64,000 nucleotides of DNA, taken from NCBI RefSeq assembly GCF_030384885.1, contig NZ_CP128614.1. One strand, written 5' to 3'. The DNA is from Escherichia coli. Its GTDB lineage: Bacteria > Pseudomonadota > Gammaproteobacteria > Enterobacterales > Enterobacteriaceae. This document shows positions 42,601 to 62,452 of the stretch, piece by piece (the first letter of the stretch is position 1; each line of letters begins with the position of its first letter). The notes under the pieces are model-generated. The model was not told where the DNA came from and did not search any database. It was given only the letters and a program-made list of their open reading frames with translations. Position numbers and translations under genes: made by a program.

Positions 42601-42643
42601 TAACTTCCGTTAATTCGTTATTATTCAATTTGTAAGGGTTTTT

Positions 42644-43547: not shown

Positions 43548-43572
43548 GAAGTCATCATCATTGCCTTAGAGT

Positions 43573-43623: not shown

Positions 43624-43646
43624 TTACTGATTTGGAAGTTTTAACA

Positions 43647-44216: not shown

Positions 44217-45598
44217 GGGAGTGGCAGAAAGAATGCTCTGAAGCAGCGCTAGAAAAATATCAATCTGGATCGCCGCACTTTCTATGTCTTGCCAGTCCTG
44301 GTGCAGGAAAAACCGTGATGGCTGCTGAAGTTGCCAGGAAAATGCTGGAGCTGAAACTAGTAGATCTCATCCTATGCTTTGCACCTTCATCTGTGGTGGT
44401 TGCATCCATTGAAAGTACTTTCTCCCATATTCTTCAAAGGAACTTTAATGGTGGTCTTGGTGCAGTAGGTGCTGCGTATACTTATCATAGCTTGATGTAT
44501 TTCGATAAAAGCTTCTGGAAGTCTTTGCAGATGCATCGGGTATTAGTTATTTTCGACGAAATCCATCATTGTTCTGGCGATTCGCTGGATAATGCTAATG
44601 TGTGGGGCGGGGAAATCCTTTCTCAAGTTCAGCAATGTGCCAGTTACTCTTTGGCACTAACAGGGACTCCATGGCGAACTGATAGTACTCCTATAGTGCT
44701 CTCAAATTACACTGATCCGGATGGGGAGATCTGTTGTGACTATGTATATGGACTACATGAGGCTATTGTCGATGGTGTTTGTCGTAAACCTAAAATCGCC
44801 TTGATAAACAGCAATAATTTAGTATATTCATCAAAGGATAATGTTCAGTTTTTTGGTTCCATCACAGATTTCCTGAGTGAAACCGTTGCTTCGTATCAAT
44901 CAATAATTTGGCATCCAGAAGCAATGAAGTATGTACTAGAAGCTGGATGTAAAAAACTTAACGAAATACGCAAAGTTAATTCTGATGCGGGTGGTTTAGT
45001 TGTTGCTTCTTCAGTCGAGCATGCATATAAGCTACTGAATATTTTGGAAAAAGAGTTTGACCAAACAGCGATAATTGTGACGTACCACGATCGAGATGCT
45101 TTGGCTAAGATTGGATATTATCGGCAATCAACTACAGAATGGATTGTTAGCGTTGGTATGATTAGTGAGGGCACAGATATCCCCAGGCTACAGGTCTGCT
45201 GCCATTTGAGTTCTGTCAAAACAGAACTTTACTTCAGACAAGTATTGGGCAGGATATTACGGGTGAATCAGAGTGAAAATCAGGAAGCCTGGTTATTTAC
45301 AATGGCTACAAATGAACTGACATTATTCTCAAACAGATTGGCCGAAGATTTACCTGAAGATTATAAAGTTATGCAACAACAATCTGATGATTGGTCATTC
45401 CCTACAATTGATTCTCAGTCTATGCCTCCAGAGTTTGTGCGGAAAAATGGTATATCTAAAATAAAAGAGATTGATTTAGAAATGGATATTGGTGAAATAA
45501 CTACATCGTCACCTACGATTTCAAGTCAAACAAAACAACTAAAAATGGGCTCAATGCATCAACAAGTGATAGATGCATTTTTATTTTCAATTATTTAA
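44204..45598 (+). CDS. SF2 DExH-box helicase
   Basis: 464-aa ORF with Walker A ASPGAGKT, motif II IFDEIHH, LTGTPWR, and motif VI FRQVLGRILR. Confidence 0.65.
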   Translation: MRMLREWQKECSEAALEKYQSGSPHFLCLASPGAGKTVMAAEVARKMLELKLVDLILCFAPSSVVVASIESTFSHILQRNFNGGLGAVGAAYTYHSLMYFDKSFWKSLQMHRVLVIFDEIHHCSGDSLDNANVWGGEILSQVQQCASYSLALTGTPWRTDSTPIVLSNYTDPDGEICCDYVYGLHEAIVDGVCRKPKIALINSNNLVYSSKDNVQFFGSITDFLSETVASYQSIIWHPEAMKYVLEAGCKKLNEIRKVNSDAGGLVVASSVEHAYKLLNILEKEFDQTAIIVTYHDRDALAKIGYYRQSTTEWIVSVGMISEGTDIPRLQVCCHLSSVKTELYFRQVLGRILRVNQSENQEAWLFTMATNELTLFSNRLAEDLPEDYKVMQQQSDDWSFPTIDSQSMPPEFVRKNGISKIKEIDLEMDIGEITTSSPTISSQTKQLKMGSMHQQVIDAFLFSII

Positions 45599-45992: not shown

Positions 45993-46433
45993 TTATTTTA
46001 TTCTTACTATCTGGCCTTGTTTTAAAGCTTTTATCTCTTGTTCCAGCGCTTCAATACGTGAACGTGCAACCCTCAGCGCATGGGAGAGCTGATGATGTTC
46101 AGCCGCCATCACTTCCAGACGACGTTTCATATCAGATGCTTTTACACGGTACTGAATTTTCACTTTACGCTCTTGGTTAAATTTATGTCGCAGGGCTTCC
46201 TGTGACTGATGAGTTAGCCTGCCCTGAGGGGATATTTTTAACCGCAGAATTTCCTCCTGGACGCGTGACTTAAATGCCCCGTAGTAGTAACAGGTTCCGT
46301 TTCCCAGCCCGGCCTCCTCTTCAACAGCACGCACCGACAACTTTCGGTTGTCAGGGATACGTTTTGTCTGACCATCAAGGATCCGTTGTAGTGCAGCTTC
46401 AAGTTTAAGGAGTGTATTTTCTGATTTGCTCAT
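45993..46433 (-). CDS. small coiled-coil protein downstream of the recombinase genes
   Basis: 146-aa ORF overlapping the stop of the 720-aa gene by 4 bp. Confidence 0.45.
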   Translation of the reverse strand: MSKSENTLLKLEAALQRILDGQTKRIPDNRKLSVRAVEEEAGLGNGTCYYYGAFKSRVQEEILRLKISPQGRLTHQSQEALRHKFNQERKVKIQYRVKASDMKRRLEVMAAEHHQLSHALRVARSRIEALEQEIKALKQGQIVRIK

Positions 46434-48592
46434 ACGCCTGTCACCTTAATGGGATGTTCATATGTGTCATAGCCAATCCCATGATCCTGCATAACCCGTT
46501 CCGCAGCCCGGATTTGAGTGATACAGTGGGCATACTCACTGATGCTTAGATCCGTCTGTTGCTGAAGATACATTATCAAAGCATTATGACGTTGCTGCCA
46601 CCACATGGCCTTATCCGTATCGATAATGCTTCCACCGCTACGACAATCCACGCAGAATGCAGGGTTGACCACACCATCCATATCGCAGTCATAGCCGTTT
46701 TTGCAGTAACTATGTAGCGTTCCATGCAAAGTAAGTCGTTTTTCCCTGACCAGTCGATAGAGATTATCCCAGCTACTGTAGATCACAGGCTTATCATTAC
46801 GCATAGCTAGAATGGCTTTGCCAAAACTTCCGCTGAGTTGACTATCCCCGTTAAACCAGCTGTCAAAAAGACTAGTTGTCTGTTCGAGCCTTGCTTCATT
46901 CAGTAATTTAATCAGTTCGCTGTCCACCTGTATTGATTGTAGCCGTGCTTCAACAGCACCGTTCCCATACCATTCACTCATTCGCAGGCTGAGGTGTTTA
47001 AACTGTTGTTTGATTGCGATGGGGTGTCCGAGCTGGTTACGTACGGCAAAGCAGGCGAAAGTTCTTCGAAACTGATGGGTTAAAAGGGGCCAGGCCTCTC
47101 CTGTTCTGATCTTATCTTCTATAGCCCCCCTGTCCCGAGGGTTAAGCTGACGGCACTCTGCGAGTGCCTGTTTATCAACAATAGCACCCACATGTCTGGA
47201 AAAATTTTTTAAACGGTCGTTCCACTTGCTGCGTGAAATGAGGACAGGCAGGTTTTTTCTTTGGTACTGGCTGAGCCACAGATTTCCTGCTGTCTCAGTA
47301 AGCGTATCAGACTGCCCTGGGTCGTTGCTGTGAACCGCTATTTTTAACAGCTGTTCACGAGCACACGCGCTGAGAGCCGTCGCAAGCGATATGGCTTTTT
47401 CAACAATAGGGCTTGCCAGCCATTCTTCATTTTTTTTCCCGGCAGCCAGTTTGTGGGTTGCTGCGCTTACCGAGTGAAAATCCTGTCCATTAATGGTGTA
47501 GGTGTGAAAACTGTCCACATGCAATTCAAATATTTCGCTGACTCTCATTCCTGTGAAAGCACCACAACAAATAAAACAGGCTGCCTGAAGTTGAGCACGA
47601 AAACTGACGAGCCAGTTACCGTCTGCTGCGCTACTGGGCAGGAGTCCTGTTCCGGTGAGATGGTTTTTGATTAGGGTATTTTGCGACCGGGGTGTCGCTT
47701 TATTAATTTCTTCTACATATTCTTTTGAACATAATTTCCCCTGTCCGTTAGTCAGCCATGTCCACTTACCTGTAAGTATTTTATAGTCAACAACGGCACG
47801 CCCGATATCATAATTAGACTGCAGTTCACGTTCTAGCTGGGCTAGTGTTTCTCTGTGGGGCCATGCAAGCTCGACAAGTCTAACGGCTTCTCCATAGAGT
47901 ATATTTGCTATTGCCTGGGGGATGGCCAGGGTTTGCCTGTGTTCTGCTTTATTTTTAGCTGACAGTTTTTTGGCTGTCTGTTTGTAGTTCAGCTGTGGCA
48001 GGTCAAGCTGGAAAGGAAGCCATGAATTTAGTCTTTCGACTGACTGTAGTGCAGAGAAAATCAATTCAACAGTTCGCTTACTAAAGGCTTCACGTTCGAT
48101 ATCGTTTTGTAGCTTTTGCCATATCTCGGGTTTATTGAAGTCAGACAGGCACGTGCTGCCACTATGCAAAAGCGTTAATAAACTCTTTTTTAACCCTAAA
48201 TTGAATCGGGAGGTCAGTGTTGACAGCTTGCAGTCTTTTCCGGAGTGATAATTTTGCTCAAATATCCATCCATATACGATAAGCTTCGCCTGAAGGAGAA
48301 GCGCCGGAGCGGACTCCAAATAGGTAAAGTTAAATTCACGCTGGTTTTTATCCGTTCCCTTATCTGAAGCAAAGGGGCTACAGTCCCAGCAATTTTGACC
48401 AAAATATGCTCGCGTGATGTTATGTTTATCGATACATATTGGGAGCTTATCGAGCGCAGACCAGTTTTTGTTTTTTATCAGAAGTAAAATATCTTCTGTG
48501 GCTCCATACGTCAGAGCGTCTTTATGAAATGAGTTCAACAGAATAGCCATAGTGATCCTTATGTCATATCTGTGCTTTGCACATCTGACCAC
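46430..48592 (-). CDS. tyrosine-recombinase-like protein (third of three tandem genes)
   Basis: 720-aa ORF with AFTGMRVSEIFEL (box I Arg) and LTHQFRRTFACFAV (HxxR) in the C-terminal half. Confidence 0.55.
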   Translation of the reverse strand: MVRCAKHRYDIRITMAILLNSFHKDALTYGATEDILLLIKNKNWSALDKLPICIDKHNITRAYFGQNCWDCSPFASDKGTDKNQREFNFTYLESAPALLLQAKLIVYGWIFEQNYHSGKDCKLSTLTSRFNLGLKKSLLTLLHSGSTCLSDFNKPEIWQKLQNDIEREAFSKRTVELIFSALQSVERLNSWLPFQLDLPQLNYKQTAKKLSAKNKAEHRQTLAIPQAIANILYGEAVRLVELAWPHRETLAQLERELQSNYDIGRAVVDYKILTGKWTWLTNGQGKLCSKEYVEEINKATPRSQNTLIKNHLTGTGLLPSSAADGNWLVSFRAQLQAACFICCGAFTGMRVSEIFELHVDSFHTYTINGQDFHSVSAATHKLAAGKKNEEWLASPIVEKAISLATALSACAREQLLKIAVHSNDPGQSDTLTETAGNLWLSQYQRKNLPVLISRSKWNDRLKNFSRHVGAIVDKQALAECRQLNPRDRGAIEDKIRTGEAWPLLTHQFRRTFACFAVRNQLGHPIAIKQQFKHLSLRMSEWYGNGAVEARLQSIQVDSELIKLLNEARLEQTTSLFDSWFNGDSQLSGSFGKAILAMRNDKPVIYSSWDNLYRLVREKRLTLHGTLHSYCKNGYDCDMDGVVNPAFCVDCRSGGSIIDTDKAMWWQQRHNALIMYLQQQTDLSISEYAHCITQIRAAERVMQDHGIGYDTYEHPIKVTGV

Positions 48593-50334
48593 AGGGGATG
48601 TCGTCCTTCATCAGCAAGTTTTCGACGGGCATGTTGTAGTGTTTTTTGATTCAGTAATTTCAGCCTGCTATCAATGTTTACGATGGTCTGGCCAAAGTTT
48701 TTTGTGTAATGGGCTTTATCCAGGTGAAGGTATTGTGATTCTTCCAGATATTCACGGAAGCTTAACACGCACCATAAATCCGTTACTGATTCGACCAGAA
48801 CCTGATGTTTGCAACTCCAGCAGTTTAACAGGTCAGCACAAGCCAGCGTTTCTTCCGGGGGGATCAGCCCGTTTCTCCTGGCCCGGGAAGTGAACATCGT
48901 GGCCATTGTACCAGCCGTGTCGTTACAATAACTTCCATGGGAGTTTCGTACGGGAGGCGATGCTCTTCTGACATAGGCCTCATATGCCAGCACGCTGACC
49001 TTTTGTGCTTCACGTACTTTCTGTTTTGCAGATTCAATACTCTGCCTGTCCCGGACAACCTGTTCCAGTGTCTGGCTGGTATCCCGGTTCATTTGATTGT
49101 TCTCGTAGGGGTTACCATCAGAATATGCCTGACGGATAGTTTCGGGGGTATTATCAAGCAGTAGTGCAGCCTCGACCGGGCCCTTCAGCGCCAGTGTCAG
49201 ATGACTGCCGGTGGCCCGAAAGCGCCTGGTGACCGGCCACAGCCTTTGCCCTAAGTCGTCTGTCATGGGGAAGTGTACAGAGAGCCAGCTACTTTTGAAG
49301 TCATTCAGCAGGCAGGAACTCATCATCTGGACGCTTTTTTTCCGATGACTATAGGTCGGTAAGAGCAGGCCATCCGGGCCGGGGTCTAACAACGTTGACG
49401 CAGTAATGAGCTGGTCAAAAAACTGTGTTGCGTATTTGGGTATTTCCAGCCGATTGTTGTCACCTATCTCAACAGAGATTGTTTTAAATGCCCGGCGCTT
49501 AAAGGCTGGCATCTGATGCCAGTTATCTGATGGTGTATGGCTGCTGAGTGTCGGTCTTTTTAATGTGTACAGGATGGAGCTGTTGCTCCATGTGTAATAA
49601 CTGAGCAGGTATGCGGCTGCATAAAATAATTTTGATACACCGCTGCGTACAGGATACGTTTTCCCTTTCCAGCAAAAAGTCATTGTTGCTGTGATACCGC
49701 TGGCTTTGATATGTGAATCTGGGTCAAGAATAAACTGGGAGTAAAGTTGCCTGAACAGTCCTCTTAGTAAAGGGAGTAATTTTTTCAGGTCACCATCGCT
49801 ATATCCTCGTGTGGGCTCTGATTGTGTATTTCCCGGGTTTTTAAACCCTGACGTAAACTTTGTACTCCGCCCCATCCAGTTGTATAAGGTTGTCAGGTCT
49901 GCCTTTATCCTGGAGGCTGTGCTGTCTTTGATTTCGCCCCTCCTTTGACGAAGTAAATGACATTTCAACTCTCTGATGAACGTGCTCTCAGACAGGGGGA
50001 TAAGTGCTGGCACCTGACTGTCACAGAAAGTAAAATGCTTTCTTGCAGCATTAAAAATATTATACTTTGTTGCAGGTGTGACATCTTCATGGCCAGTAAT
50101 TGCAATAAACAGTGACTGTACAATGTCATCCCGTGCCAGTAATTGCTCATCCCCCTGTTTTATCAGGTTGGTTTTGGGTATGCCCTTATAGCGAAAGCGG
50201 TTAAAATCTAACAGGGTATGAGCATTGGCGCCATTGCGTATTGGTATACAGAGGTGTTCAACCCAGGGCGTTGTGAGTTTTAATTTGCTGCTCATACTTT
50301 CACTCCAGTAGTGCTCTGTGCATAATTTCATCAA
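48559..50334 (-). CDS. recombinase-module protein (second of three)
   Basis: 591-aa ORF overlapping both neighbours; catalytic motifs not clearly readable. Confidence 0.45.
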   Translation of the reverse strand: MMKLCTEHYWSESMSSKLKLTTPWVEHLCIPIRNGANAHTLLDFNRFRYKGIPKTNLIKQGDEQLLARDDIVQSLFIAITGHEDVTPATKYNIFNAARKHFTFCDSQVPALIPLSESTFIRELKCHLLRQRRGEIKDSTASRIKADLTTLYNWMGRSTKFTSGFKNPGNTQSEPTRGYSDGDLKKLLPLLRGLFRQLYSQFILDPDSHIKASGITATMTFCWKGKTYPVRSGVSKLFYAAAYLLSYYTWSNSSILYTLKRPTLSSHTPSDNWHQMPAFKRRAFKTISVEIGDNNRLEIPKYATQFFDQLITASTLLDPGPDGLLLPTYSHRKKSVQMMSSCLLNDFKSSWLSVHFPMTDDLGQRLWPVTRRFRATGSHLTLALKGPVEAALLLDNTPETIRQAYSDGNPYENNQMNRDTSQTLEQVVRDRQSIESAKQKVREAQKVSVLAYEAYVRRASPPVRNSHGSYCNDTAGTMATMFTSRARRNGLIPPEETLACADLLNCWSCKHQVLVESVTDLWCVLSFREYLEESQYLHLDKAHYTKNFGQTIVNIDSRLKLLNQKTLQHARRKLADEGRHPLWSDVQSTDMT

Positions 50335-51679
50335 GCATAGAGATTTTTTCTTTCAGGGCTTCTTTAGTTTTTAGATAGCGTAAATACTTCCATGTTGTTG
50401 ATTCATTTTTATGCCCCATCCATTGCATCAGCAGGCTGAGTGCATCGGCAGGCTCTATGCCCGCAGTAAGTAGACTGTACAGGCGATACGTTGCATAACT
50501 GCACCTCAGGTCATGAAACTTATGGTCAAATGCGATCCCTGAATTAATCATTTTTTTTCGCAATTCACCAAATCGGGCACCCGTGCTCTGTGGGGTACAG
50601 GGGGAGCCCTGCTGACTAATAAATAAGGGTTCATTTTGAATGGCAGAAACTAAAGATTCAGATCTGATTTTGTCTGAAAAGAGTGTTCCGGGTACGGTTT
50701 TTATTTCTTGCTGACCCATTTTTAACATCGCTTTAATACGCATCTGTAATTTATCAAAGCGGGTCATTCTTCTTTCGCTAATGGCATAGTGCTGTAATTT
50801 ATCTAAAAGAGTATTAGTTATTTCAATCGTTCTTGTTTTATTATATTTAGTGGGTACACCGTTACTAGGTCCAATAGTGATTTCGTAGTGGGTACGTGAT
50901 TCGGTTCTTTGTACAGCCTGATTTAACGCAGTTAAGGTAAATCCTGTGGCTTCTTCAATTCTGAGCCCACATTGTGCTGCCAGCAGACAAATAAGCTGCA
51001 TTTCAACTGAGGTCTGGCTAAGATGGATTGCAAATTCTGTAAGCATTGTTTGCGAAAGTGGTGATAATCTGCGAATATTCAGACTGTTAGAGTCTTTAGG
51101 GACCCTGATACGTAAATCCGTTGTCTGTACGAAAAATTTTGGCTTCATATGTGCCAGTATGTCGTTATTTCTGAATCTGACAAATTCTATGTCAAAGGGT
51201 TTGTTTGTTTCCGTTACCGGAAAGTAGTGCTCATACGCTGCCCAGAGATAGAACTGTACAAGATGACATATATAGGTATTAGCCGTGGAAAAAGCGATTT
51301 CTCCAGTTTTGACCTTTTTTAGCAGCCCATCATTACGGTAGCGATAGGCAGGTTTTAATGCTTTTACTGCAGGAAAGTTATCCCATGCAAGTTCTTCAGA
51401 CTCCAAAAAGCACCAGTAAAATTTTAACGCTCTTGCATAAGAGCTAAGGTTTTCCAGTCTTTTTTCAGCTTTGAGATGTATAAGCCATTGATTTACAGGT
51501 TCTATATAATTACCATCATAACCATACAATGTAGGAAGTGGACCCACATTTCGTCCCCCCCTGAATTCAATCGATTCATCTGTAGTAATGATATCACCAC
51601 CAATAAATACATCTGCTGAGTTGAGTAAATAAGCCAAGAATGCAGACCTCCAATGGTTGTAAACTTCTGCCATGCTCAT
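50300..51679 (-). CDS. tyrosine recombinase / integrase (first of three)
   Basis: 459-aa ORF with CGLRIEEATG (box I Arg), HKFHDLRCSYATY (HxxR) and C-terminal WKYLRYLK Tyr region. Confidence 0.65.
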   Translation of the reverse strand: MSMAEVYNHWRSAFLAYLLNSADVFIGGDIITTDESIEFRGGRNVGPLPTLYGYDGNYIEPVNQWLIHLKAEKRLENLSSYARALKFYWCFLESEELAWDNFPAVKALKPAYRYRNDGLLKKVKTGEIAFSTANTYICHLVQFYLWAAYEHYFPVTETNKPFDIEFVRFRNNDILAHMKPKFFVQTTDLRIRVPKDSNSLNIRRLSPLSQTMLTEFAIHLSQTSVEMQLICLLAAQCGLRIEEATGFTLTALNQAVQRTESRTHYEITIGPSNGVPTKYNKTRTIEITNTLLDKLQHYAISERRMTRFDKLQMRIKAMLKMGQQEIKTVPGTLFSDKIRSESLVSAIQNEPLFISQQGSPCTPQSTGARFGELRKKMINSGIAFDHKFHDLRCSYATYRLYSLLTAGIEPADALSLLMQWMGHKNESTTWKYLRYLKTKEALKEKISMLDEIMHRALLE

Positions 51680-52783
51680 TCTCCAAAGCCTGATGCTGTT
51701 TCCCCGGAAGATAACAAGAAAAGACCGGGTGTGTGGCTATGAAGAAGATCCTGTATAACTTGAAGAACATGTCCCCGGACATTATATTTCAGTGACATAC
51801 CTTAGTTATGTTTAGCTCATCTTCAGCGAAAAGCCAGTACCAGATTAATCATCTGGAAGAGGTGAGCATCTGTTAAGTTTAGACAATATTTCCCGGAACG
51901 AGAAACTAGCTGGAAAAATGGAAGAGGAAGGTATGAATCAGCGTTTCATCTGGTTTGCGGAAAACAGAGACAAAAAGTATAGGGAGGATATCGATGCTAA
52001 CATATTTTCTCAATGAGATAATGTGTGATAGTAATTTAATGCTTATGTAAAATTGGGCTACCCATTGAAAGAACCAAGAATCAATATAACTGGATAGATG
52101 TTTTGGATGAATTGTTCCTTCAGAAATAAGTGGGGTCTACATACTTTATCAGGTTCAACAGTCTGATACAAAAGATAGTACAACCTCAGTGCCTGGCTGT
52201 TTAGCGCTGGTTTTAAAAGGTTAATCAAAGGTTTTGAAGGAAGGATGATTGAGCAGTAACAGCCTTATGAAGGTTGTATACATTGATACTGCGTGCCCGG
52301 AGAGAAAATGAGAGGGTGAGGCATCGGTTTCACCCTCTCATCAGCCGCTGATATGCTGATGGAAATAAACCACTAGGGCGTACTACTGTATGCTAGATCC
52401 CTTTTAATTTAATCATCTTCTGATTTGTATACAACAACTTTGATTGAGATTTTATTTTTGACAGACGTAACTTATTTTGGCTGAAAAGTTGTATTCGCTA
52501 CCCTCATGAAATTAAAATATGCGGAGTACTTTCTGCCCTGAAAAAGACGCTTCCGTGAAAAGCAGATAAACCCTGATGAGAAAAGATGGTGATCACTAAC
52601 TGACTAGTAGTGATGTTAATTCACGTTTTTTGATTTTTAAGTTCGATACAACTACGTGATAATTTATAGTTTTTATGGGAAAGTGATGCGTTTTACTGAG
52701 GGGTGGCATTCTTCAGTAGGGTAAAAATTAATCTTCCTACAAATTAGTTCTTATATATTGAGATGCTTGGAAAGAATCCGGAC

Positions 52784-53032
52784 TTATGAGTATACGCCAT
52801 GCTCTAAACGCAAAATTAATGATACGACCATTAAACCTCCCTCTTCAGGGTCAATGGCTTCAGTGGGTGTTTTCCAGGCTAATGCTCTGTTAGAGGTATT
52901 GCACCATTTCAAAGCAGAATCTCTGTTCCCCTCAAAAAGCGCTAACGCTTTTAGATGTAGAACACTTTTGGTCATCATCTGTGATCCTGAATGACTTTTT
53001 AGTACTTCAAAAAGGTTGCTTCGTAGAGTCAT
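52784..53032 (-). CDS. DUF2384-like protein (toxin-binding domain of Xre/ParS/MbcA-type antitoxins)
   Basis: 82-aa ORF; DSALKWCNTSNRALAWKTPTEAIDPEEGGLMVVSLILRLEHGVYS fits the recalled DUF2384 consensus (W..P.ALGG.P..L..T..G...V...L.RIEHG); no RES-type partner ORF downstream; palindromic motif 115 bp upstream. Confidence 0.5.
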   Translation of the reverse strand: MTLRSNLFEVLKSHSGSQMMTKSVLHLKALALFEGNRDSALKWCNTSNRALAWKTPTEAIDPEEGGLMVVSLILRLEHGVYS

Positions 53033-53146
53033 TGTTTCGGGTCGTTACGAACTCAACTGTGGCAACCTTGCTTGTCATGATTTCCGAACCTACCTGTCGG
53101 GGCACAGATAATGCCAGCAAAGATACTATTCCATACGCTATCCCAA

Positions 53147-53157
53147 AAAGTTACTTT
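53147..53157. promoter_or_regulatory. palindromic motif AAAGTTACTTT, copy 7
   Basis: 115 bp upstream of the gene starting at 53032. Confidence 0.5.
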
Positions 53158-53396
53158 TCTATAGCAACCTAAACCAGTGTGGTTGTGACCAGTCCCCGGT
53201 ATTAAACACCATAGTCAGTTAGTAATATCAGTTTTCTTTCTTTATCCCATTTTGCCAGTCTATTGCAAACTCCGCTGGCGTCAGAAAATTCAGTGAGGAA
53301 TGAGGCCGACATGCTCTGCACTCTGACCTGATAGCATAAAAAAACTGGCTTTTTAGGCCAGTTTTACAGAGTTGCAAAGGTGTAGGTATAGTTTTT

Positions 53397-53969
53397 CTAC
53401 ACTAACGTGTCATGGTAGGTTGAGCACTGACGGGTTGAAGAATTAGTCCAGGTCGGAAGTCCACGTCCAGTCAGAATGCGGCCTACCCAGCTCTGCGTAA
53501 GAGACGGTTGGGCGACAAGGACTGTGACCGGTAGCTGGTGTTCAGCAATGAACATTCTAAGCTGGTTGAGAACCTGTGAAGCCTGATAGTGCATCTCAGG
53601 GTTTTCGATCAGCGTATCGGACATCTGAATGAAATGATGTTCGCTGATATTTGTGCCGTTACGTACTGCCCTGATCAATGCCATCAGAAATAGGTGAAGA
53701 AGAGAATGGGAGTCTTTACCGCCACTGTATCCCACGCACATCGTCCATCCGTCCGTAATAGCCTGATAAATAGCAGATGTGGCTGACGTGACCAGAGAAG
53801 AAAGACTCACAGTCTCCTTTTCATCGGTATAGTTCAGATCGGCATCGGTTGTCAGGGTCTCCCAAACATCAGCCCATTTATCATGTTTCAAAATGGCAGC
53901 ATTAGCCGCCTCAGGAAAAATAACTTCTGAGGGTAATTCAAGGAATGAGTCACTTTTTTCAATAAACAT
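53397..53969 (-). pseudogene. N-terminal fragment of a PAPS-reductase-family (DndC/IbrA-like) gene
   Basis: 190-aa ORF with P-loop YSGGKDS and DT/PE motif (SDTLIENPE) but none of the downstream fold motifs; those are found in the 31221..33176 ORF. Confidence 0.5.
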
Positions 53970-54141
53970 ATATTTTCCTGAACCACGGCATATGCTGCAT
54001 CACTGATATTTTTATTAGAACTTTAAAATAACTACAGCGCAACCATTTAGCGAAATTATATTAAATCAAAATCACGCAAATTTAATTCTTAAATAGATTT
54101 AAAATAAAAACCCATTGTAATTTAATCTCCCAGCACAGCTA

Positions 54142-54591
54142 TTAGATATAGGTTGGTGGTGTAATAAAAGCCGTGACATTTGTTTTCAACTCAGACAGCG
54201 GAATTGAAGGAGTGTTAAGAGTCATGTCATCACCACAATGGCGTGGTAGAGCAGAAAGCTGAAATGAATCTTTCATCACCCTAATAACCGGGCATTCCGT
54301 ACGTGCTGATGGCATTACTTCCCGCAGCATCGCTTCCTGCCTTGTGCTATCGCTATGCTTATATTCATCCTGGTCTGTTATTTCTTGAATTTCATCTTCA
54401 CCACAAAATGACCAGTTAGCGTCATAGAAGTAAAACTCAGTTAACTGAAGATCGTTTTTTTTCACGTATGTCGCCAATTTGCGGATACGCTGTTCAAGCA
54501 TTGTATCTATCCGTAAGGAAACACTTTGCGGAACATCACTTGCAAAGTCATTGATGCAAACAACGGTAGATACTATGAATTTATTGGTCAT
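54142..54591 (-). CDS. hypothetical protein
   Basis: 149-aa ORF. Confidence 0.45.
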   Translation of the reverse strand: MTNKFIVSTVVCINDFASDVPQSVSLRIDTMLEQRIRKLATYVKKNDLQLTEFYFYDANWSFCGEDEIQEITDQDEYKHSDSTRQEAMLREVMPSARTECPVIRVMKDSFQLSALPRHCGDDMTLNTPSIPLSELKTNVTAFITPPTYI

Positions 54592-54642
54592 GGCAGGCTC
54601 CAGGCCACCGGGGGAACCGGTGGCTACGGTTATCAGGCAGGC

Positions 54643-55434
54643 TTATGCGCCGCAAAGGGTGTCAAGGGAAGGAAGAAGCTTGCTCAGCTTGTCGTAATCG
54701 AGCGGAGACAGTTCTGTAACGAGTTCGACCGAAAGACTGGTGTTGTCTTCTTCACTCAGAATATAGATTCCGTCTTCTGGCTCTTTTCCGGCACATGCCT
54801 TCAGTCGTCTGTTAACGACCTCCTGGGCTGAATCCGCTACGTCGCAGCTCAGGACATAGCTTGCCACATAGCTGCTCTCACCGTGGTAATGCGTCACTTT
54901 ACACAGAGCATACTGGATACCGGCTTTGTGAGCCTCATTCATGAGACGAGAAAACTGACAGCCATCCTGGTAATAGTGGGTATCCTTTGTGACCAGAATA
55001 GTCATACCCCCAAATTCATCTGTCCGGCTTTTACTGCATGTAAATGCAGCAGTAATTGTTACCATTTCCGGGAGGTCGAATACCGACAGCACGGCAGTTG
55101 TGAGGCAAATTGCATGGTCAAGATCAATAGTCTCTCCATGAAAAACTGACAGCCCACTGCTGTTAACTTCTGTTGCGAACGACAGTTCATAATTACAGTC
55201 TGGGCAGGATGGTTGCCCAAAGCTCGGCTCTGAAGGGTCATACTCAGGGTGGTTCTCAATAATACTGAGAATCAGCTTCTCAGTCAGAGAACAATCTGCC
55301 AGTGGCTTATCAATCAAACGCTCACCTTCTGCAATTTCTGCTTCGGTAACGAATGTGATTGCTTCTTGTGCCATTTTAGCCTGCTCCTGAGTGCAGGGAA
55401 TAATAAACGACGCCAGAGTATAATTATCTGCCAC
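54643..55434 (-). CDS. hypothetical protein
   Basis: 263-aa ORF, acidic. Confidence 0.5.
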   Translation of the reverse strand: MADNYTLASFIIPCTQEQAKMAQEAITFVTEAEIAEGERLIDKPLADCSLTEKLILSIIENHPEYDPSEPSFGQPSCPDCNYELSFATEVNSSGLSVFHGETIDLDHAICLTTAVLSVFDLPEMVTITAAFTCSKSRTDEFGGMTILVTKDTHYYQDGCQFSRLMNEAHKAGIQYALCKVTHYHGESSYVASYVLSCDVADSAQEVVNRRLKACAGKEPEDGIYILSEEDNTSLSVELVTELSPLDYDKLSKLLPSLDTLCGA

Positions 55435-55660
55435 AGTTGACTCCTTGATTATTTAATTAATGTATTTGATGAGAAGATCATAACAAACACACTACTACCA
55501 ACTAATAACCTGAAGTCGTTTTTTTAGAAAAAATATTAAGAAGAATATGAACACCACCTCATCTTAAATTAATATTGTTCAGGATTAATATTCATTTTTG
55601 CAAATAAAATCCGCCAGACGGCGGCTTTTATAAAGAGGGAAATATCATTGGAAGCTGAAA

Positions 55661-55918
55661 TTACTTCACGGCAGGCCGACAAATTACGCGACTGCTGTGA
55701 GCTGAAGCGAAACTTGTAGAGGAAACTATAATCACCTTTTCTAAGTCGTCGGCACTGTCGGCAATATGATGCCGAAAAGCCTCCTCTGCATCACCAGGGG
55801 AATCGGCTTCGACCGGGTAGGCCTGATCATCATCATCAAACATAATGCGCCCGGAAATGAGATAAAGTCGGCTCAAATCTGGCGTCGCTGCGCTCGTGCT
55901 TCGTTCGTTCAGATTCAT
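55661..55918 (-). CDS. hypothetical small protein
   Basis: 85-aa ORF. Confidence 0.35.
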   Translation of the reverse strand: MNLNERSTSAATPDLSRLYLISGRIMFDDDDQAYPVEADSPGDAEEAFRHHIADSADDLEKVIIVSSTSFASAHSSRVICRPAVK

Positions 55919-55983
55919 TTTTTCTCCGTCTGTTGCTCGTAAAAAGAATGACGCCGGTTTAAAAGGCGTCGCCAGGGTTCAGG

Positions 55984-56310
55984 CTAAAACGCAGGGTTGC
56001 CATCGAGGAAGCTCATTGGCTGGCCAATAGCGGATGCCACCCTGAGAATTTCACCTGGTGTGGCATAGCGCAGCATTTCTGAGCGTCCAAATTTCTGATA
56101 CTCATCTACTGACATCTTTCTCCACTCGGGGTGAGGATCTTTTCCGCACAGTGACCAGTTGCTTTCAGAGGAATCACGACGGAGAACGTACACATCAAGC
56201 GAGGCTGTAAGCCCGCTTCCATATCCCCGCTGCGCTACAATACGAACCTGAGAACCATCGTCGCGTTGCAACGTCTGGGTTAATTTCGTGATAGGATCCT
56301 GAGAATGCAT
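55984..56310 (-). CDS. hypothetical protein
   Basis: 108-aa ORF; palindromic motif 207 bp upstream. Confidence 0.45.
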   Translation of the reverse strand: MHSQDPITKLTQTLQRDDGSQVRIVAQRGYGSGLTASLDVYVLRRDSSESNWSLCGKDPHPEWRKMSVDEYQKFGRSEMLRYATPGEILRVASAIGQPMSFLDGNPAF

Positions 56311-56516
56311 GCCATTTACCTCGTTTTTAAAAGAATTACCGTAAGTAAATGATACCGAATCGAGAATTCTGGCTAATAGGTCAGAAGAAAAAATATTGCA
56401 TATTTTTGAAGTGTAGGATAATGATTAGAATAAAATGGCCTGAATAAATCGTTAGCTTTAACTCTGCTTATTTCAGAAAAACTCTGAATTAGTAGTGATG
56501 GAAAACGACGCGGTGA

Positions 56517-56527
56517 AAAGTAACTTT
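56517..56527. promoter_or_regulatory. palindromic motif AAAGTAACTTT, copy 8, with extended arms
   Basis: GGTGAAAAGTAACTTTTACACC is a 22-bp near-perfect inverted repeat centred on the core. Confidence 0.55.
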
Positions 56528-57152
56528 TACACCGCAATTCAGAAAAAAGTTTCAGTTAGTCACATTACGAATAACCCGGCTTACTTTCGCATGTGCGTTC
56601 CCCTGCATGTTAAAGTAAAGCCCTCCGGGCAGACTCGTCGCCCACTTAACGCCTCGCTCAGCCATACGCTTCGGTGTTTCCAGCCAACCACGAGGAATAT
56701 TGCCCGGAACGTTACCGATAACCCGTCAAATGCATGCTGCTACCCGGATGCCGCCGGGAATATCGCATTTGGATTCAACAATATGCATGACCTCAGATAA
56801 AGCACCATGCCGCTGGACATGATCGCCAATGTGCAACTCGATAGGAGAAGCCATTTCTGAATCTGACTTCATATCTGTCCACCTTTAATTTAGAAACCGT
56901 CTAAATTACCAAATTAGTTAATCCAACAACATCTGTATCACAACCATCAATTTGTTTTTGTTGGGTCTATATCGTAGAAACAAGTGAATAATGAATACAC
57001 TCGTTAATACAGACAACCGGAAATGAATGACTACCTGATTATCTCAGCGGTATATGCTAAGCCGTTAATATTGCCATTCTCTGGTGGAACCACTGCTAAA
57101 TGAATAAACCGTTTGTCGCTTCAAACCACTTTATCAAAACCGTTAACTTGCA

Positions 57153-58403
57153 TTAAGTCCGATACAGTTCGGCGAGCTCATCCAGCATGGGGTTACTCTT
57201 ATATCCCGGTGCGGCCGTAAAAAGGTTTCGGGAAATCGCCAGCCACTCCATGATTTTGTCCGTCGCCAGCCAACGTCTGCCAAGTCGCTCGGCTGCGATG
57301 GGGACTTTATGCAAGCCAGCGAAGGGATCTACAACAAGATCTCCCGGCTCTGTCAAAAACTCAATCAGAAACGCTGCAAGCCTGGTAGGAGACGTTGCAC
57401 CGTGCAGCGGAAAACCGAGCTCGCGGGCAATGGAATGGCAAAATCTCGTATCAGCGCAGCTATTGCCGTAAAACAAAGTATTCTTGGGGATCGTTCCTTC
57501 TGTTTTATTTCCAAAGGAACCGCTTTTAAGCTGGTACGCCCCATCACCATAAAAGGTCGTGCGATTTTCACCGCCTGCTGCCTGCAATTTTAGATGCTGG
57601 TCTGAATGCGGTTGTAGTACACGTAAGTTGTTTGAACGAACCTTACTCGCATCATTGGTAAACCACAGCACAGGCTCATACGATGAGCAGAGCTGCACCC
57701 GTTGCTTACATGCCCAGTGCGTTGGCGATGGGGGCTTACTGCGATTCACCCACTGAAGCCTGTCCATGAGCTCAAGCCCCAGCTTGTCACATAATGCCAG
57801 TGTCAGACGCTCCAGATACAGAGAACGTGAAGGCCTACCCCTATTAAAGCTATCTTGAGTGATATTCAATGCCACACTTGCGCCCGGTACAAGCTGTTTC
57901 ACGATCGGTTCGAGGATACGCAGAAGCCAGTCAATATAAGCCTGCTCGCCACGCCCCCCTCCGTGCCCGTAGTCTCTTGAATTTCGAAGGAGGTAAGGTG
58001 GCGAGGTCAGGCAAAGATGAATTTGCTCGGTGATATTGCTGAAGAAGGCATAGGCGTTTCCAAAAACCGATGCCCCAAGAGAAGTTGAGAAACCGACAAC
58101 ACAGAGCTTTTCCCATGACTCATGCAGGTTTGTTTTCGTCTTAGAGGCGTATCTCCAGACGCCCCGTTTTTCTGGAACGCGTTCGATGACCCCGGCCTGA
58201 CGGAGAGTCTGCTGAAACCAGCGAACCTTATGTTTGACGCCGCTGGTTCTGGTTTTATCTGACCCAAATTCTTTCAGTTCGTGCAATTCGGCATCCGACA
58301 TGCCAGTTTTACGCTGCACTTCGCGATAAAGCTCGTCGTTGGTCAACGGCGATTCGGAGGCAGCGTAGATATGCGCAATTAAGTCCGTATTAATCGTACT
58401 CAT
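57153..58403 (-). CDS. DNA methyltransferase (N6-adenine or N4-cytosine class)
   Basis: 416-aa ORF with catalytic motif IV LCLTSPPY preceding SAM-binding motif VVDPFAGLH (beta-class order). Confidence 0.7.
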   Translation of the reverse strand: MSTINTDLIAHIYAASESPLTNDELYREVQRKTGMSDAELHELKEFGSDKTRTSGVKHKVRWFQQTLRQAGVIERVPEKRGVWRYASKTKTNLHESWEKLCVVGFSTSLGASVFGNAYAFFSNITEQIHLCLTSPPYLLRNSRDYGHGGGRGEQAYIDWLLRILEPIVKQLVPGASVALNITQDSFNRGRPSRSLYLERLTLALCDKLGLELMDRLQWVNRSKPPSPTHWACKQRVQLCSSYEPVLWFTNDASKVRSNNLRVLQPHSDQHLKLQAAGGENRTTFYGDGAYQLKSGSFGNKTEGTIPKNTLFYGNSCADTRFCHSIARELGFPLHGATSPTRLAAFLIEFLTEPGDLVVDPFAGLHKVPIAAERLGRRWLATDKIMEWLAISRNLFTAAPGYKSNPMLDELAELYRT

Positions 58404-58571
58404 CAGCCATCCTAATGGGGATACAGTTATTATATCGGCCTGATGGTTGGAAGTGAGATTACTAAATCAGACCGATCTGGTTTGTTGAAGACTTTGCCAA
58501 ATCATGCAGCACAGCTGGGCTTGCACAGAGCGAGCCGGGCTCCTTTAGCGGAGACACCTTCGCAAGTTGGA

Positions 58572-59192
58572 TTAATCAGCCTCAAGATTCTGGAACTCAA
58601 TGAGCTTTTGCTCACACTCCTCCCTGCCCCACGATCCCTGCCAGTCACAGATGTCCCGGTACTTACTTTCCAGCTTATCCATCTGTGCGAGATTAGCTGT
58701 TGCGAAGTCTGTCCATATGTCATGCCAGCAAGCGTTGTACGTAACGCCAGCTGGTGGACAATACTCCATTGCATCAGCATTAATAATTTCAACGCGAAGA
58801 TCGGTTGCAAACGAGGCTGCAACGAGGTTAATAACATCCTGTTCTTTTTCGATTACCGTGACATGGGTTACATCGTCTTTCTGAAGAATGGCGTGGAGCA
58901 CCATACCAAGACCAAGACCATTAATGAGCACCCGCCCGGTGGCTCGCTCTATAAAATCCTGGCAGGTTCGGATCTCCATCGGGGTATTGGACATCACCAC
59001 ATCCCAGCCGTTGGACAAGCGGCGATATCTACCGGGCGGGATAAACTCATCTGTATTACCAGTACACTCGGCACGAAGGGCGAGGGTCAGCGCCTTATCT
59101 GTGGTAATTTCGAAAGTGTCCAGTTTCCAAGTTCCGGACTTGCCGTCTTTAACGGGTAAATCAGAAAAGCAGCTCTTCATCGAGGCAACCAA
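58572..59192 (-). CDS. SAM-dependent methyltransferase-like protein
   Basis: 206-aa ORF with Gly-rich VLINGLGLGMVLHAIL resembling class I MTase motif I; substrate unknown. Confidence 0.5.
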   Translation of the reverse strand: MVASMKSCFSDLPVKDGKSGTWKLDTFEITTDKALTLALRAECTGNTDEFIPPGRYRRLSNGWDVVMSNTPMEIRTCQDFIERATGRVLINGLGLGMVLHAILQKDDVTHVTVIEKEQDVINLVAASFATDLRVEIINADAMEYCPPAGVTYNACWHDIWTDFATANLAQMDKLESKYRDICDWQGSWGREECEQKLIEFQNLEAD

Positions 59193-59335
59193 AATTCCAG
59201 TAGTTTTGTTACGCTGAACCTACCACAAACCCGCTCTTAATGAAGGCATCAGGAGCGATAGCGATCTTTGAGGCATCGTTTAAAACAGCGGCATCCTGTA
59301 ACAGACACCCGATATTTTTTTTAATGCCGCAGGTG

Positions 59336-59593
59336 TTAAAGGTAGCGTTGCAAAGTTGCAACATCTTCAGGGGCAACCTCCACGCAGCTCCTGACACTGT
59401 AGTGATTTTCGCCGTTGTAGTCATAAACCCCACCGTCTTCAAAACTCAGCTGTTCAACCTCGCCAGCACACTCGGAAATCAGTGCCGTCTGGCAAGCATT
59501 TTTCTCACAATCGCTGACGAGTATACGAACATAGCTTTTCTCATGGTCGCCGTTACGGTTCTGGATCTTTACGATAAAGTGTTTTTCAGACAT
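59336..59593 (-). CDS. hypothetical small protein
   Basis: 85-aa ORF. Confidence 0.4.
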   Translation of the reverse strand: MSEKHFIVKIQNRNGDHEKSYVRILVSDCEKNACQTALISECAGEVEQLSFEDGGVYDYNGENHYSVRSCVEVAPEDVATLQRYL

Positions 59594-59657
59594 TTGTGCC
59601 TCCAGCTCAGGTTGAGGTTAATTTAGCGTTGCCCCGGTTCACCGGGGCAAGAATAAA

Positions 59658-60086
59658 TCAACCCTTAATGAAATTGTGCCCCCAGGTGTTAGGCTTAAAT
59701 GCCTGCTCTTTGATATATGTTTTCATTACCTTGCAGGTTTTTTTCAGGGCTTTGGTATTGGCATCGGTTACTGGGATAAAATGGCGAGAATGACGGTTTT
59801 CCCGGTACTGCTTATCAGCGTTTGGGTCAATTGCTTCGCTTTGCAGGAGCCCTTCGTGCCTGCCAATTACTATTACGTAGTTCATTTCACCTGAAACACG
59901 ATCCGTGAGTAATTGAAGGGAAATATCAGCTGCTCGCGTGGCCTGGCTTGCAGATATTTTTGCATGCAAGAAAGCCCCCTTTCTGAATTTGGCCGGAGTT
60001 AGCCCTGTAATATCCTCAACACTAAAATTAAGTGAGGAAAGAATTGAAAATAAGTCGCAGCTAATGACTTCAGTATTATTAGGCAT
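59658..60086 (-). CDS. hypothetical protein
   Basis: 142-aa ORF. Confidence 0.45.
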   Translation of the reverse strand: MPNNTEVISCDLFSILSSLNFSVEDITGLTPAKFRKGAFLHAKISASQATRAADISLQLLTDRVSGEMNYVIVIGRHEGLLQSEAIDPNADKQYRENRHSRHFIPVTDANTKALKKTCKVMKTYIKEQAFKPNTWGHNFIKG

Positions 60087-60180
60087 TTTACCCGTCCCCG
60101 TCCATATTCATGATACGGTAATGATACCAGGTCGATATCATTACCTAATAACTTGGTGAAAGAAAATCTGTAATTTTTAG

Positions 60181-60558
60181 TTAACTAAAATTAATAGTCT
60201 CAATACTGCTCAAGAATTCTTTTTTTACGTCCGGTGTAAAAGGTATACGTTCAATGTATTTATAAAGTGTCGCAAATGTTTTGGGTTCAATGTTTCGGGA
60301 GATAATGTCATCAATCGGATCTTCGAACATATTGATAAAGATATCGACATGCTGCTCTCCGCTTTCTGATGCCTTTGAAAGAAGACTGACCACTTCAATG
60401 TAGCGATTATCCTGCTCTGCAATGAACAACCAGTGCCCTTCGTTAAAGGCGGGTGCAGCGCTGTAGCGTTTAACAACAATTTCTGAAAGATTATATCCTG
60501 CCTGATTCAGCAGATTATTAAAGTTGAGTTGAGTTGAAATCACGTCTAACGTTTTCAT
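60181..60558 (-). CDS. hypothetical protein
   Basis: 125-aa ORF; palindromic motif 171 bp upstream. Confidence 0.45.
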   Translation of the reverse strand: MKTLDVISTQLNFNNLLNQAGYNLSEIVVKRYSAAPAFNEGHWLFIAEQDNRYIEVVSLLSKASESGEQHVDIFINMFEDPIDDIISRNIEPKTFATLYKYIERIPFTPDVKKEFLSSIETINFS

Positions 60559-60728
60559 AAAACCTCCTTTTCATCTGTACTTATTATACTGTTACCCAAC
60601 CCCCAGCTAATAACCTCCCAGCAAATTTTCAGAAAAAAAACACCGCCTTTTATTTAAGATTGAACACATCCTTTTTTAATACCAACAATGATTATGAAAC
60701 CACAATGTAAGTGAAGCGCCATTATGGA

Positions 60729-60739
60729 AAAGTAACTTT
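60729..60739. promoter_or_regulatory. palindromic motif AAAGTAACTTT, copy 9
   Basis: 171 bp upstream of the gene starting at 60558. Confidence 0.5.
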
Positions 60740-60965
60740 TGTGCAGCTCATAAATTTTATTTATTAGTTACGTTCCTTTGTCTTGTGGTCGAAGTTCATC
60801 AGGCGAGGCCTAAGAAGAATATGTGTGGTTTCAGCCAATGCGGTGATCGGGCATTATAATTTGGTCGGGCTATTATACGTGGGTAAAGGTAGTGGTAGGG
60901 AGAGGATCAGGTTAAATTGCATTTTCCCGGTTGCCTTCCCTGGCCTACCGGTTTCAGGTCAGACG

Positions 60966-62009: not shown

Positions 62010-62155
62010 ATCTGTAAGCTGGCAGTTCGCAGTAGGCTTCGGGGAAAGGGTACTAAATATGTAACTTGCCTATTGTTTAGTACTGGCCTGGATATAAAAC
62101 ATCGCGTCCATGCTTGTATCCCGGGATGAAATTGAAAATAGCTTCATTTTTAACC

Positions 62156-62452
62156 TTAATGGATGAGCGATTTATAGTCATGTGCTGACAAATGGACATT
62201 ATGTGCGCCATCATTCCATTCAAAGAATAATCGATACTTAGAGTTTACTCGAATGGAGGAATAACGGTTTGACGTCATTCTTAAGCGTTCATAACGCAAG
62301 CTGTTGGATAATAACTCCCGCTCACTCTGGACATTATCCAGCGTTTCGAGTCGACACAGAATCGCGTTAATAATTTCAGAAGGAATACCTGCCGTTGTTT
62401 TTCCATTACGGAAGAACTTTTCAAGCCGTCTGTCTTTAAATGAATGGATCAT
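62156..62452 (-). CDS. HigB-family (RelE/ParE superfamily) toxin-like protein
   Basis: 98-aa ORF; pattern MIxSFKDxxLEKFFxxGxxxGIP...YSSIRVNxKYRLFFEWxDG...HDY matches the recalled killer-protein HigB family. Confidence 0.55.
   Translation of the reverse strand: MIHSFKDRRLEKFFRNGKTTAGIPSEIINAILCRLETLDNVQSERELLSNSLRYERLRMTSNRYSSIRVNSKYRLFFEWNDGAHNVHLSAHDYKSLIH

Follow-up and report, generated by a model that had tools for sequence, protein, structure and literature searches.

A stand-alone RES-antitoxin toxin-binding domain, probably the leftover half of an HTH/DUF2384 unit, in the 5' slot of a putative defence-carrying GInt on an IncHI2 plasmid

The stretch of 64,000 nucleotides (nt) of an Escherichia coli IncHI2 plasmid analysed here (the window) contains a short gene for a DUF2384 domain, the toxin-binding domain of RES antitoxins, with no RES toxin gene beside it. 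The locus raises the question of whether a toxin-antitoxin pair was broken here, as an earlier, sequence-only reading had proposed; by that account, the toxin would have been displaced or deleted when a neighbouring recombinase-bearing element arrived, and a boundary of that element would lie near 52.1-52.8 kb. Our analysis points to another history. We consider it likely that the gene is the leftover half of a two-gene helix-turn-helix (HTH)/DUF2384 unit, that it belongs to a clade without RES partners, and that it occupies the 5' slot of a 20.4-kb element of the kind called GInt (a genomic island that carries three integrases), at a secondary site in the plasmid. The reading frame and the DNA downstream of it are as follows:

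52784-53032, minus strand: 82-amino-acid (aa) open reading frame (ORF), the longest possible reading in its frame; the first 18 codons are an in-frame relic of the upstream HTH gene.
52784-52978, minus strand: probable true coding sequence (CDS), a 64-aa stand-alone DUF2384 protein starting at M19 of the 82-aa ORF.
51680-52783, strandless: mildly AT-rich non-coding spacer of 1,104 bp between the DUF2384 gene and ginA; 38.0% G+C, no ORF longer than 62 aa.

The ORF encodes a stand-alone RES-antitoxin toxin-binding domain. PF09722 is the Xre/MbcA/ParS C-terminal toxin-binding domain, earlier named DUF2384, and residues 29-79 of the ORF match this profile (Xre_MbcA_ParS_C) over positions 2-51 of 51 (E=2.6e-8), at 34.2 bits against a curated Pfam threshold of 24.5; the DUF2384 assignment of the sequence-only reading was thereby upheld. 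The NCBIfam model of the full-length antitoxin, NF049845, scored under its cut-off because the N-terminal part is missing from the protein; only model positions 40-112 of 112 were aligned, and the N-terminal third of a normal antitoxin is therefore absent. The window protein thus consists of the C-domain alone, lacking the DNA-binding, Xre-like HTH domain found at the N-terminus of type II RES-Xre antitoxins. An AlphaFold2 model of residues 19-82 was predicted with a pLDDT of 90.7, its last five residues being less confident than the remainder, as a flexible tail might be. All 13 of the 13 best PDB matches of this model were C-domains of RES-family antitoxins (TMq 0.64-0.85), headed by 8GUG_B (TMq 0.84, root-mean-square deviation 1.4 A) and followed by 6GW6/9R35, 6D0H, 6FKG and 8QNQ; a profile built from 28 short homologues also matched the C-domains 8GUG_B (2e-16), 6GW6_B, 6D0H_B and 6FKG_C. 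The window domain is 47-58% identical to the antitoxins of RES pairs in related Enterobacterales, and its C-terminus, RLEHGVYS, is the same as that of RES-paired enterobacterial antitoxins.

The CDS is likely to span 52784-52978 and to encode 64 aa from M19, because residue 19-20 of the 82-aa ORF is where every close homologue begins (those of 63-69 aa cover residues 19-82), because an AGGA, a putative Shine-Dalgarno sequence, lies 7-10 nt 5' of the M19 ATG, and because the Prokaryotic Genome Annotation Pipeline (PGAP) calls a 64-aa protein, WP_023309557.1, in the near-identical plasmid pMY490.

No RES toxin was recovered around this gene. Six-frame translations of 51680-53240, the search for remnants that the sequence-only reading had proposed, gave zero matches to PF08808 at E<=10, and no other Pfam family was found in the spacer. 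The entire 64-kb window was searched by tblastn with 24 genes adjoining the closest full-length, two-domain homologues, which had been selected for their position and length, and with a custom profile built from these 24 (hmmsearch --max); nothing significant was returned. As a positive control, five of five sampled downstream neighbours of two-domain homologues (two from a 152-156-aa Enterobacterales class, and three of 154-250 aa from distant phyla) were recognised as RES in Pfam, at E=1e-23 to 1e-33. The best E-values of RES queries in the window were 0.006-0.2, off the locus; RES-like candidates at 42057-42170 (E 0.02-0.2) and at 46248-46415 within ginD (E 0.006, low identity) were dismissed after inspection of the alignments.

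The spacer itself, 38.0% G+C against 44.6% for the window, agrees with the sequence-only reading in being about 1.1 kb of AT-rich non-coding DNA. No structured RNA and no Rfam family was found in 51680-52783, no protein-level similarity to related loci was detected, and in PLSDB its DNA had no match apart from pMY490. On the minus strand at 52307-52342 it contains a hairpin with a 13-bp stem followed by a U-run (dG -23.1 kcal/mol, z = -2.8), which could stop any transcript before it reaches ginA.

In order to place the protein, its relatives and their neighbourhoods were compared. A word-index search returned only four proteins, all of 50-75 aa, and an exhaustive search returned 174, of which the best true matches were 63-69 aa long; the top match of the latter, P0005, a 1,195-aa repeat protein, was spurious. 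The short RES-less relatives come from several genera, plasmids and metagenomes, and no RES gene stands beside the 63-69-aa relatives in the inspected contexts (L003-L008, L010-L013, L017, L030, L053-L056 and L058). In the closest relative (L003, 67% identity), a ginD homologue is followed by a 97-aa ORF and then by a solo DUF2384 gene. In L004-L008 (58% identity), the DUF2384 gene begins within the end of an HTH_3 gene, and an operon of four gin-like genes (525, 556, 845 and 167 aa) runs convergently towards the two. HTH/DUF2384 pairs also lie beside an insertion sequence and defence genes (L010-L013) and beside a truncated gin operon in Enterobacter (L017); on plasmids or chromosomes of E. 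coli and Klebsiella (L053, L055, L058), ginABCD is followed by the DUF2384 gene and the HTH gene, both pointing back towards it, and then by a 186-aa gene. L054 and L056 carry the unit with decayed gin genes, the DUF2384 gene of L056 (E. coli) being solo, and L030 is a further short-DUF2384 context. Where the two genes are intact (L004, L007, L011, L012, L017, L053-L055 and L058) they overlap by 14-17 nt, and the intact unit usually comes directly behind ginD, where the defence cargo begins; an intact cassette is also present in the GInt of E. coli 214-4, next to hipA. Among 5,426 complete E. coli genomes, the segment running from ginD through DUF2384 and HTH to the 186-aa gene was matched in 295, and over at least 80% contiguously in 157.

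The comparison with intact Xre-RES loci suggested by the sequence-only reading found RES partners only beside more distant, two-domain homologues of about 147 aa (PF20432 plus PF09722), not in the short clade. In a one-genome-per-species scan, about 29 of the 35 loci encode such two-domain antitoxins, and 2 are of the short type; 21 of the roughly 29 two-domain loci have an overlapping gene of 152-156 aa downstream, and both sampled genes of this class were confirmed to be RES. The two groups also differ at the C-terminus: the E-H of the motif is invariant in about 31 RES-paired homologues and altered in most RES-less ones (RIEQGVYS, RINQGVYS, RIGHGVCS), a contrast which is not an artefact of the scan, because its pattern admitted both E/G and H/Q at the variable positions. 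The altered plug motif of most RES-less forms would fit a changed partner. Judged from these contexts, the short DUF2384 clade appears to be RES-less, and annotation pipelines do recognise its members: PGAP names the two genes of the cassette 'helix-turn-helix domain-containing protein' and 'MbcA/ParS/Xre antitoxin family protein'. In the literature, we found no paper on orphan or stand-alone DUF2384 proteins, on an HTH_3 plus short DUF2384 bicistron or on a RES-less subfamily.

Two further observations concern these relatives. At 9995-10017 of L004, and also in L017 and L053-L055, the overlap of HTH stop and DUF2384 start falls in an A-rich stretch (...GGCAAAAAATGA...), at which a frameshift might conceivably fuse the two proteins. 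In L057 (1079-1414), a predicted protein of 111 aa (P0010) combines the N-terminus of a phosphotransferase-system EIIB protein with the C-terminal 44 residues of a DUF2384 protein, 73% identical to that of the window; this chimera could reflect a genuine insertion junction or an error of assembly, and it was set aside as a relative because its 1.6-kb contig gives no context.

If the short clade is RES-less, the question becomes which partner, if any, the window gene has lost. The features that bear on it are these:

52979-53023, minus strand: about 45 nt left over from a controller-type HTH_3 gene (its 3' end), identified by nucleotide alignment to L004 and holding the Shine-Dalgarno sequence of the DUF2384 gene.
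53164-53377, minus strand: remnant of an IS3-family (ISKpn34-like) insertion sequence, comprising the transposase C-terminus and the downstream end, with a 49-aa ORF (53228-53377).
43236-43547, minus strand: HTH103, an intact controller-type HTH_3 gene of 103 aa, 61% identical to the cassette HTHs (PADLOC Control_protein PDLC03667, E=3.8e-25).

The lost partner appears to have been an HTH regulator gene, and not a RES toxin, because the relic of about 45 nt from an HTH 3' end lies beside the IS3 remnant, and because the Klebsiella pneumoniae plasmid L058 still has IS3, HTH and DUF2384 in this order, intact and all on one strand. The relic encodes RSNLFEVLKSHSGSQ, as compared with ...ERSNLIEALKTSSGVK / RSNLIEALKTSSGVK at the C-terminus of the L004 HTH protein; its homology ends at about 53023 against L004 and at about 53010 against L003, whose own HTH gene ends within about 13 nt of the break point in the window. 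On the other side of the break, 53164-53311 is 74-75% identical to copies of ISKpn34, and the 49-aa ORF ends ...RPHSSLNFLTPAEF....

HTH103 sits 9 kb from the DUF2384 gene, and no DUF2384 remnant was found downstream of it (at 43236); since HTH103 keeps its own C-terminus, the two are not halves of one cassette. The cassette HTH (WP_001300511.1 in E. coli) matched PADLOC Control_protein (E=5e-26) as well as the N-termini of capH and RmrA. We considered whether the cassette might be a canonical antitoxin split in two and rejected this, the HTH being of the HTH_3/controller type with no homology to the Xre-like N-domain (hhalign probability 6%). The divergent neighbour of 183-186 aa was likewise considered as a hidden toxin; it gave no RES or toxin signal, only a weak similarity to AbiEi-type winged helices (E=0.003) and a coiled-coil-like C-terminus. 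The 225-aa protein next to HTH103 in the window has no detectable relation to this cassette neighbour.

The proposal of an element boundary at 52.1-52.8 kb was examined by comparison with sites that lack or share the element, which gave the following limits:

33054-53417, minus strand: whole element of the GInt/Tn6571 family, 20,364 bp, delimited by comparison with an empty-site plasmid and inserted in a 794-aa gene of the 3'-phosphoadenosine-5'-phosphosulfate (PAPS)-reductase family of the IncHI2 backbone.
53330-53417, minus strand: 5' (ginA-side) terminal arm, with the 9-bp repeat GTGTAGAAA at 53394-53402, a terminator-like hairpin at 53341-53365 and the element end at 53417.
33054-33150, minus strand: 3' terminal arm; the 9-bp repeat GTGTAGAAA stands here in inverted form, at 33078-33086.

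The surrounding DNA is IncHI2 backbone, some part of 40000-64000 being at least 99% identical in more than 600 PLSDB plasmids; 53415-64000 is matched at 100% by all 25 plasmids listed below the top PLSDB match. The empty-site IncHI2 plasmid pMCR1_025943 (L002) is collinear with 25051-33053 of the window and then with 53418-64000; base by base, its empty target reads ...GATTTTGTAGTC^GGTTGAGCACTG..., inside the 794-aa gene, and neither a target-site duplication nor long terminal inverted repeats were found at the plasmid junctions in this comparison. A chromosomal contig of Enterobacter hormaechei (L016) is 100% identical to the window from 53417 down to 52807; the identity breaks off exactly at 53417, the junction with the gor 3' end. 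The element boundary is 53417/53418, and because both comparisons place the end at 53417, the DUF2384 gene lies 385 bp inside the element that bears the recombinase trio, rather than outside it. The DNA around the ORF (51600-53400) was found in one PLSDB plasmid only, pMY490-mcr-9 of Enterobacter cloacae, and in none of the complete E. coli genomes. The interrupted gene, which is DndC-like and on the minus strand, is split into 31221-33053 and 53418-53969 and is intact in typical IncHI2 plasmids.

The ends of the element point to its usual target. Exact copies of the 9-mer GTGTAGAAA number only two in the window; they are inverted, lie 25 and 16 nt from the element ends and may be recombinase-binding sites. 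When the element ends ...GTAGTAGTTTGT and TACCATGACACG... are joined they yield AGTTTGTTACCATG, which matches the gor 3' end at the chromosomal junction; the terminal ...AGTTTGT together with the 5' end TACCATG... restores 14 nt of gor. In the occupied chromosomal site, the proposed core would give an attR of ...AGTTTGT followed by TACCATGCGT..., and in E. hormaechei the 5' end of the element contributes a new gor C-terminus and stop codon. A related GInt stands at gorA in E. coli EC2 (L052), with a ginA of 65% nucleotide identity, a collinear operon and a 5' arm which, judged by eye, is of similar architecture. Because the joined ends restore the gor 3' end and a related GInt occupies E. coli gorA, the gor 3' end is likely to be the home or preferred site, and the plasmid gene a secondary one.

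The recombinase trio that the sequence-only reading had placed beyond the spacer is indeed there, as three overlapping genes of 459, 591 and 720 aa, and forms part of the following operon:

45993-51679, minus strand: ginABCD-type operon of overlapping genes, recognised from its ORFs and architecture.
50300-51679, minus strand: ginA, 459 aa, PF00589 (E=2.2e-9).
48559-50334, minus strand: ginB, 591 aa, no profile match.
46430-48592, minus strand: ginC, 720 aa, weak PF00589 match (E=0.012).
45993-46433, minus strand: ginD, 146 aa, 35% identical to the ginD-like ORF of L003.

GInts are defined as genomic islands with three integrases and a ginABCD operon, and belong to the Tn6571 family of the Tn554 superfamily (PMC5385486, Bardaji et al. 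2017; PMC10121019, Hochhauser et al. 2023; PMC8865565). Published GInts excise as circles, for which all four gin genes are needed (PMC5385486), and defence-carrying GInts of E. coli are already on record (PMC10121019). Site-specific insertion, in many cases at the end of a gene, between short imperfect direct repeats and without duplication or inverted repeats of the transposon kind, is also characteristic of the family. By the architecture of the trio and these published descriptions, the window element would be a defence-carrying GInt of the Tn6571/Tn554 family.

The DUF2384 gene stands between the 5' arm and ginA, a slot that in the window it shares with the IS3 remnant and the 1.1-kb spacer. 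In E. coli EC2, beside gorA, the same interval (L052 10321-13582) holds a SIR2_2-domain gene and a 332-aa gene; the slot is therefore variable, and this GInt lineage can bear cargo before as well as after the gin operon, in which it departs from the tripartite layout that has been published. The idea that the 5' slot is the tail of a second, tandem GInt was unsupported, as 51680-52783 contains no copy of GTGTAGAAA with up to one mismatch. Within the spacer, 52193-52232 shows a marginal likeness to that part of the 5' arm which holds the terminator (local score 25, the 95% null being 23); this could be a relic of an older element end, or chance.

The data suggest that the solo gene is still under selection. 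The ratio of nonsynonymous to synonymous rates (dN/dS) of the 64-codon ORF was 0.17 against L003, which shares the HTH truncation, and 0.15 against L004; it is on the value against the similarly truncated L003, from which the ORF has diverged at about 26% of nucleotides while remaining intact, that apparent selection of the solo gene is judged. The ORF is identical in the window, pMY490 and E. hormaechei, that is, with zero substitutions in three hosts and replicons, which is not significant alone.

These results bear directly on what became of the locus. That an Xre-RES antitoxin lost its toxin when the recombinase element arrived, with a boundary at 52.1-52.8 kb, is highly improbable, even though the ORF carries the toxin-binding domain of RES antitoxins, canonical homologues have an overlapping RES gene directly downstream and the corresponding 1.1 kb here is non-coding; two independent comparisons put the boundary at 53417/53418, with the ORF and the trio in one element, six-frame translation yielded no RES remnant, the close relatives all lack both RES and an Xre-like N-domain, and the truncated neighbour is the upstream HTH gene. 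Rather, a 20.4-kb defence-carrying GInt would have landed in an IncHI2 plasmid gene, with no toxin displaced by its arrival. It is rather unlikely, to our minds, that the gene is inert debris of an IS3-mediated deletion, not transcribed and hitch-hiking in the 5' slot. The IS3 remnant and truncated HTH gene that flank the ORF, the lack of a promoter-like site upstream on its strand, the surrounding 1.1 kb that resembles decayed DNA without homologues, and the similar solo copy in the decayed GInt of E. coli L056 would all suit that explanation; the ORF is nevertheless intact with a Shine-Dalgarno sequence, its dN/dS against L003 is low although the HTH genes break within about 13 nt of each other and nucleotide divergence is about 26%, and it has no substitutions in three hosts and replicons, the last point again not being significant alone.

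If the 64-aa protein is functional, it would presumably act as a small protein-binding module. One tentative possibility is that it pairs non-covalently with a controller-type HTH protein, a copy of which HTH103 encodes, to form a two-piece regulator resembling an Xre antitoxin that would control transcription of the element or its cargo. Another, which we regard as doubtful, is that it acts in trans as an antitoxin or immunity protein, plugging the NAD+ pocket of toxins of the RES type, which degrade NAD+ or ADP-ribosylate and whose genes would lie elsewhere (in the host, in competing plasmids or islands, or in phages), so that the host of the GInt would be shielded from addiction or abortive-infection modules. 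The C-terminal region of Pseudomonas putida Xre blocks the RES NAD+ pocket, and the last ten residues of MbcA, at the same chain position as the motif here, are essential for neutralisation of MbcT (PMC6436930). The window protein retains the full toxin-binding domain and the canonical RLEHGVYS, is 47-58% identical to RES-pair antitoxins of related Enterobacterales and ends in five residues modelled with lower confidence, as for a flexible tail. On the other hand, the 64-kb window has no RES gene, the E-H of the plug motif is altered in most RES-less relatives while invariant in RES-paired proteins, and tight translational coupling to a regulator, not free-standing expression, is the rule. Because of that altered motif and constant coupling to the controller HTH, the co-regulator role is slightly favoured, and a RES plug acting in trans is somewhat less likely. 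More broadly, short RES-less DUF2384 proteins coupled to a C-protein-like HTH may constitute an undescribed module of enterobacterial GInts and defence islands, serving as a switch for transposon or cargo or as a portable anti-RES factor, with the window gene as a still-selected solo copy; we put this forward as a possibility, with some reserve.

Several points weigh against our preferred reading of a still-selected leftover of an HTH/DUF2384 unit in a GInt. The dN/dS values come from only 64 codons, at a synonymous divergence above 1, and some of the changes may be older than the loss of the HTH gene. A prediction scan found no sigma-70-like promoter on the minus strand between the terminator of the 5' arm (53341-53365) and the ORF, and the upstream HTH gene and any promoter before it are gone, so that the window copy is possibly silent. 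The retained RLEHGVYS fits a trans-acting antitoxin as well as, or better than, a co-regulator. Association of the clade with GInts rests on about 12 inspected contexts and one E. coli-wide count, and membership of the trio in the GInts on architecture and published descriptions. Finally, the relatives have the gene on the other side of the gin operon, not in the 5' slot.

The cargo of the element includes a complete type II cyclic-oligonucleotide-based antiphage signalling system (CBASS) with other known or candidate defence genes:

36583-41180, minus strand: complete type II CBASS operon, GInt cargo.
40110-41180: patatin-like effector of CBASS.
38809-40110: DncV-like cyclase of CBASS.
37040-38809: Cap2 (E1/E2) of CBASS.
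36583-37053: Cap3 (JAB) of CBASS.
33419-34525: HEC-08/DUF3644 candidate, near the CBASS operon.
35024-36247: 407-aa membrane protein, near the CBASS operon.
44204-45598: helicase, GInt cargo.

In the interval 43236-45598, the controller-type HTH gene is divergent from the genes for a 225-aa protein without database match and a 464-aa ResIII/helicase protein with weak similarity to PbeA; the group may be a regulated defence candidate. A second HTH_3 protein of 98 aa (41631-41927, minus strand) is, by eye, conserved in the island of Enterobacter sp. 10-1 (L017 8426-8722), and its presence in both islands gives a hint that they have more of their backbone in common than the gin genes. At 42202-43043 (plus strand) there are short ORFs which by eye resemble fragments of unrelated genes, among them a His-rich 132-aa ORF and a 120-aa ORF like YgiW/BOF-type OB-fold proteins.

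For annotation, these results imply that a lone 'MbcA/ParS/Xre antitoxin' is not to be taken for half of a broken RES-Xre pair when it is annotated on a plasmid or island of enterobacteria, since the subfamily appears normally RES-less and to mark GInt-type transposons. For the plasmid, the limits of the 20.4-kb GInt are fixed; with it, CBASS and further defence genes have entered an IncHI2 backbone, at the cost of a disrupted PAPS-reductase-family gene, and the gor 3' end is pinpointed as its likely home site. If the HTH/DUF2384 pair of GInt transposons is a regulator or an anti-RES factor, an antitoxin domain would have been re-used outside toxin-antitoxin systems, on widespread and little-studied transposons.

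Set against known systems, the window protein shares with the RES-Xre antitoxins (Xre/MbcA/ParS/NatR) the same C-domain, by profile and predicted fold (TMq 0.69-0.85), and the same R-L-E-H-G-V-Y-S end, whereas it has 64 aa in place of about 110-150 and lacks the N-terminal DNA-binding domain; RES-Xre systems differ further in that here there is no RES gene in cis or in the window, and the closest relatives, themselves RES-less, reside on GInts and defence islands. Among C-protein and CapH-type controllers of restriction-modification and CBASS, CapH acts together with the protease CapP, and we know of no report of coupling to a DUF2384 protein; the cassette HTH and HTH103 resemble these controllers in matching PADLOC Control_protein/capH and in adjoining the edge of defence cargo.

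The element resembles GInt/Tn6571 transposons in its ginABCD-like operon, in which three tyrosine-recombinase-like genes and a small fourth gene form one unit, in its defence cargo, in its use of a conserved gene's 3' end (gor) as insertion point, with joined ends that share 14 nt with the target, and in being without target-site duplication or long inverted repeats. It differs in that ginA lies 1.74 kb from the 5' end, with the DUF2384 ORF, the IS3 remnant and the spacer intervening, in that the 3' end is not notably AT-rich (43% G+C), and in that this copy occupies a secondary site in a plasmid gene. Compared with the HTH_3 plus short DUF2384 bicistron, the HTH gene of the window is deleted, the divergent neighbour of 183-186 aa is absent, and the DUF2384 gene lies upstream of ginA on the same strand, whereas its relatives follow ginD (convergent in L004, L053, L055 and L058, co-directional in L003); the window protein is 52-67% identical to the DUF2384 proteins of this bicistron, of the same length and likewise GInt-associated, with 45 nt upstream that are homologous to the 3' end of the cassette HTH gene.

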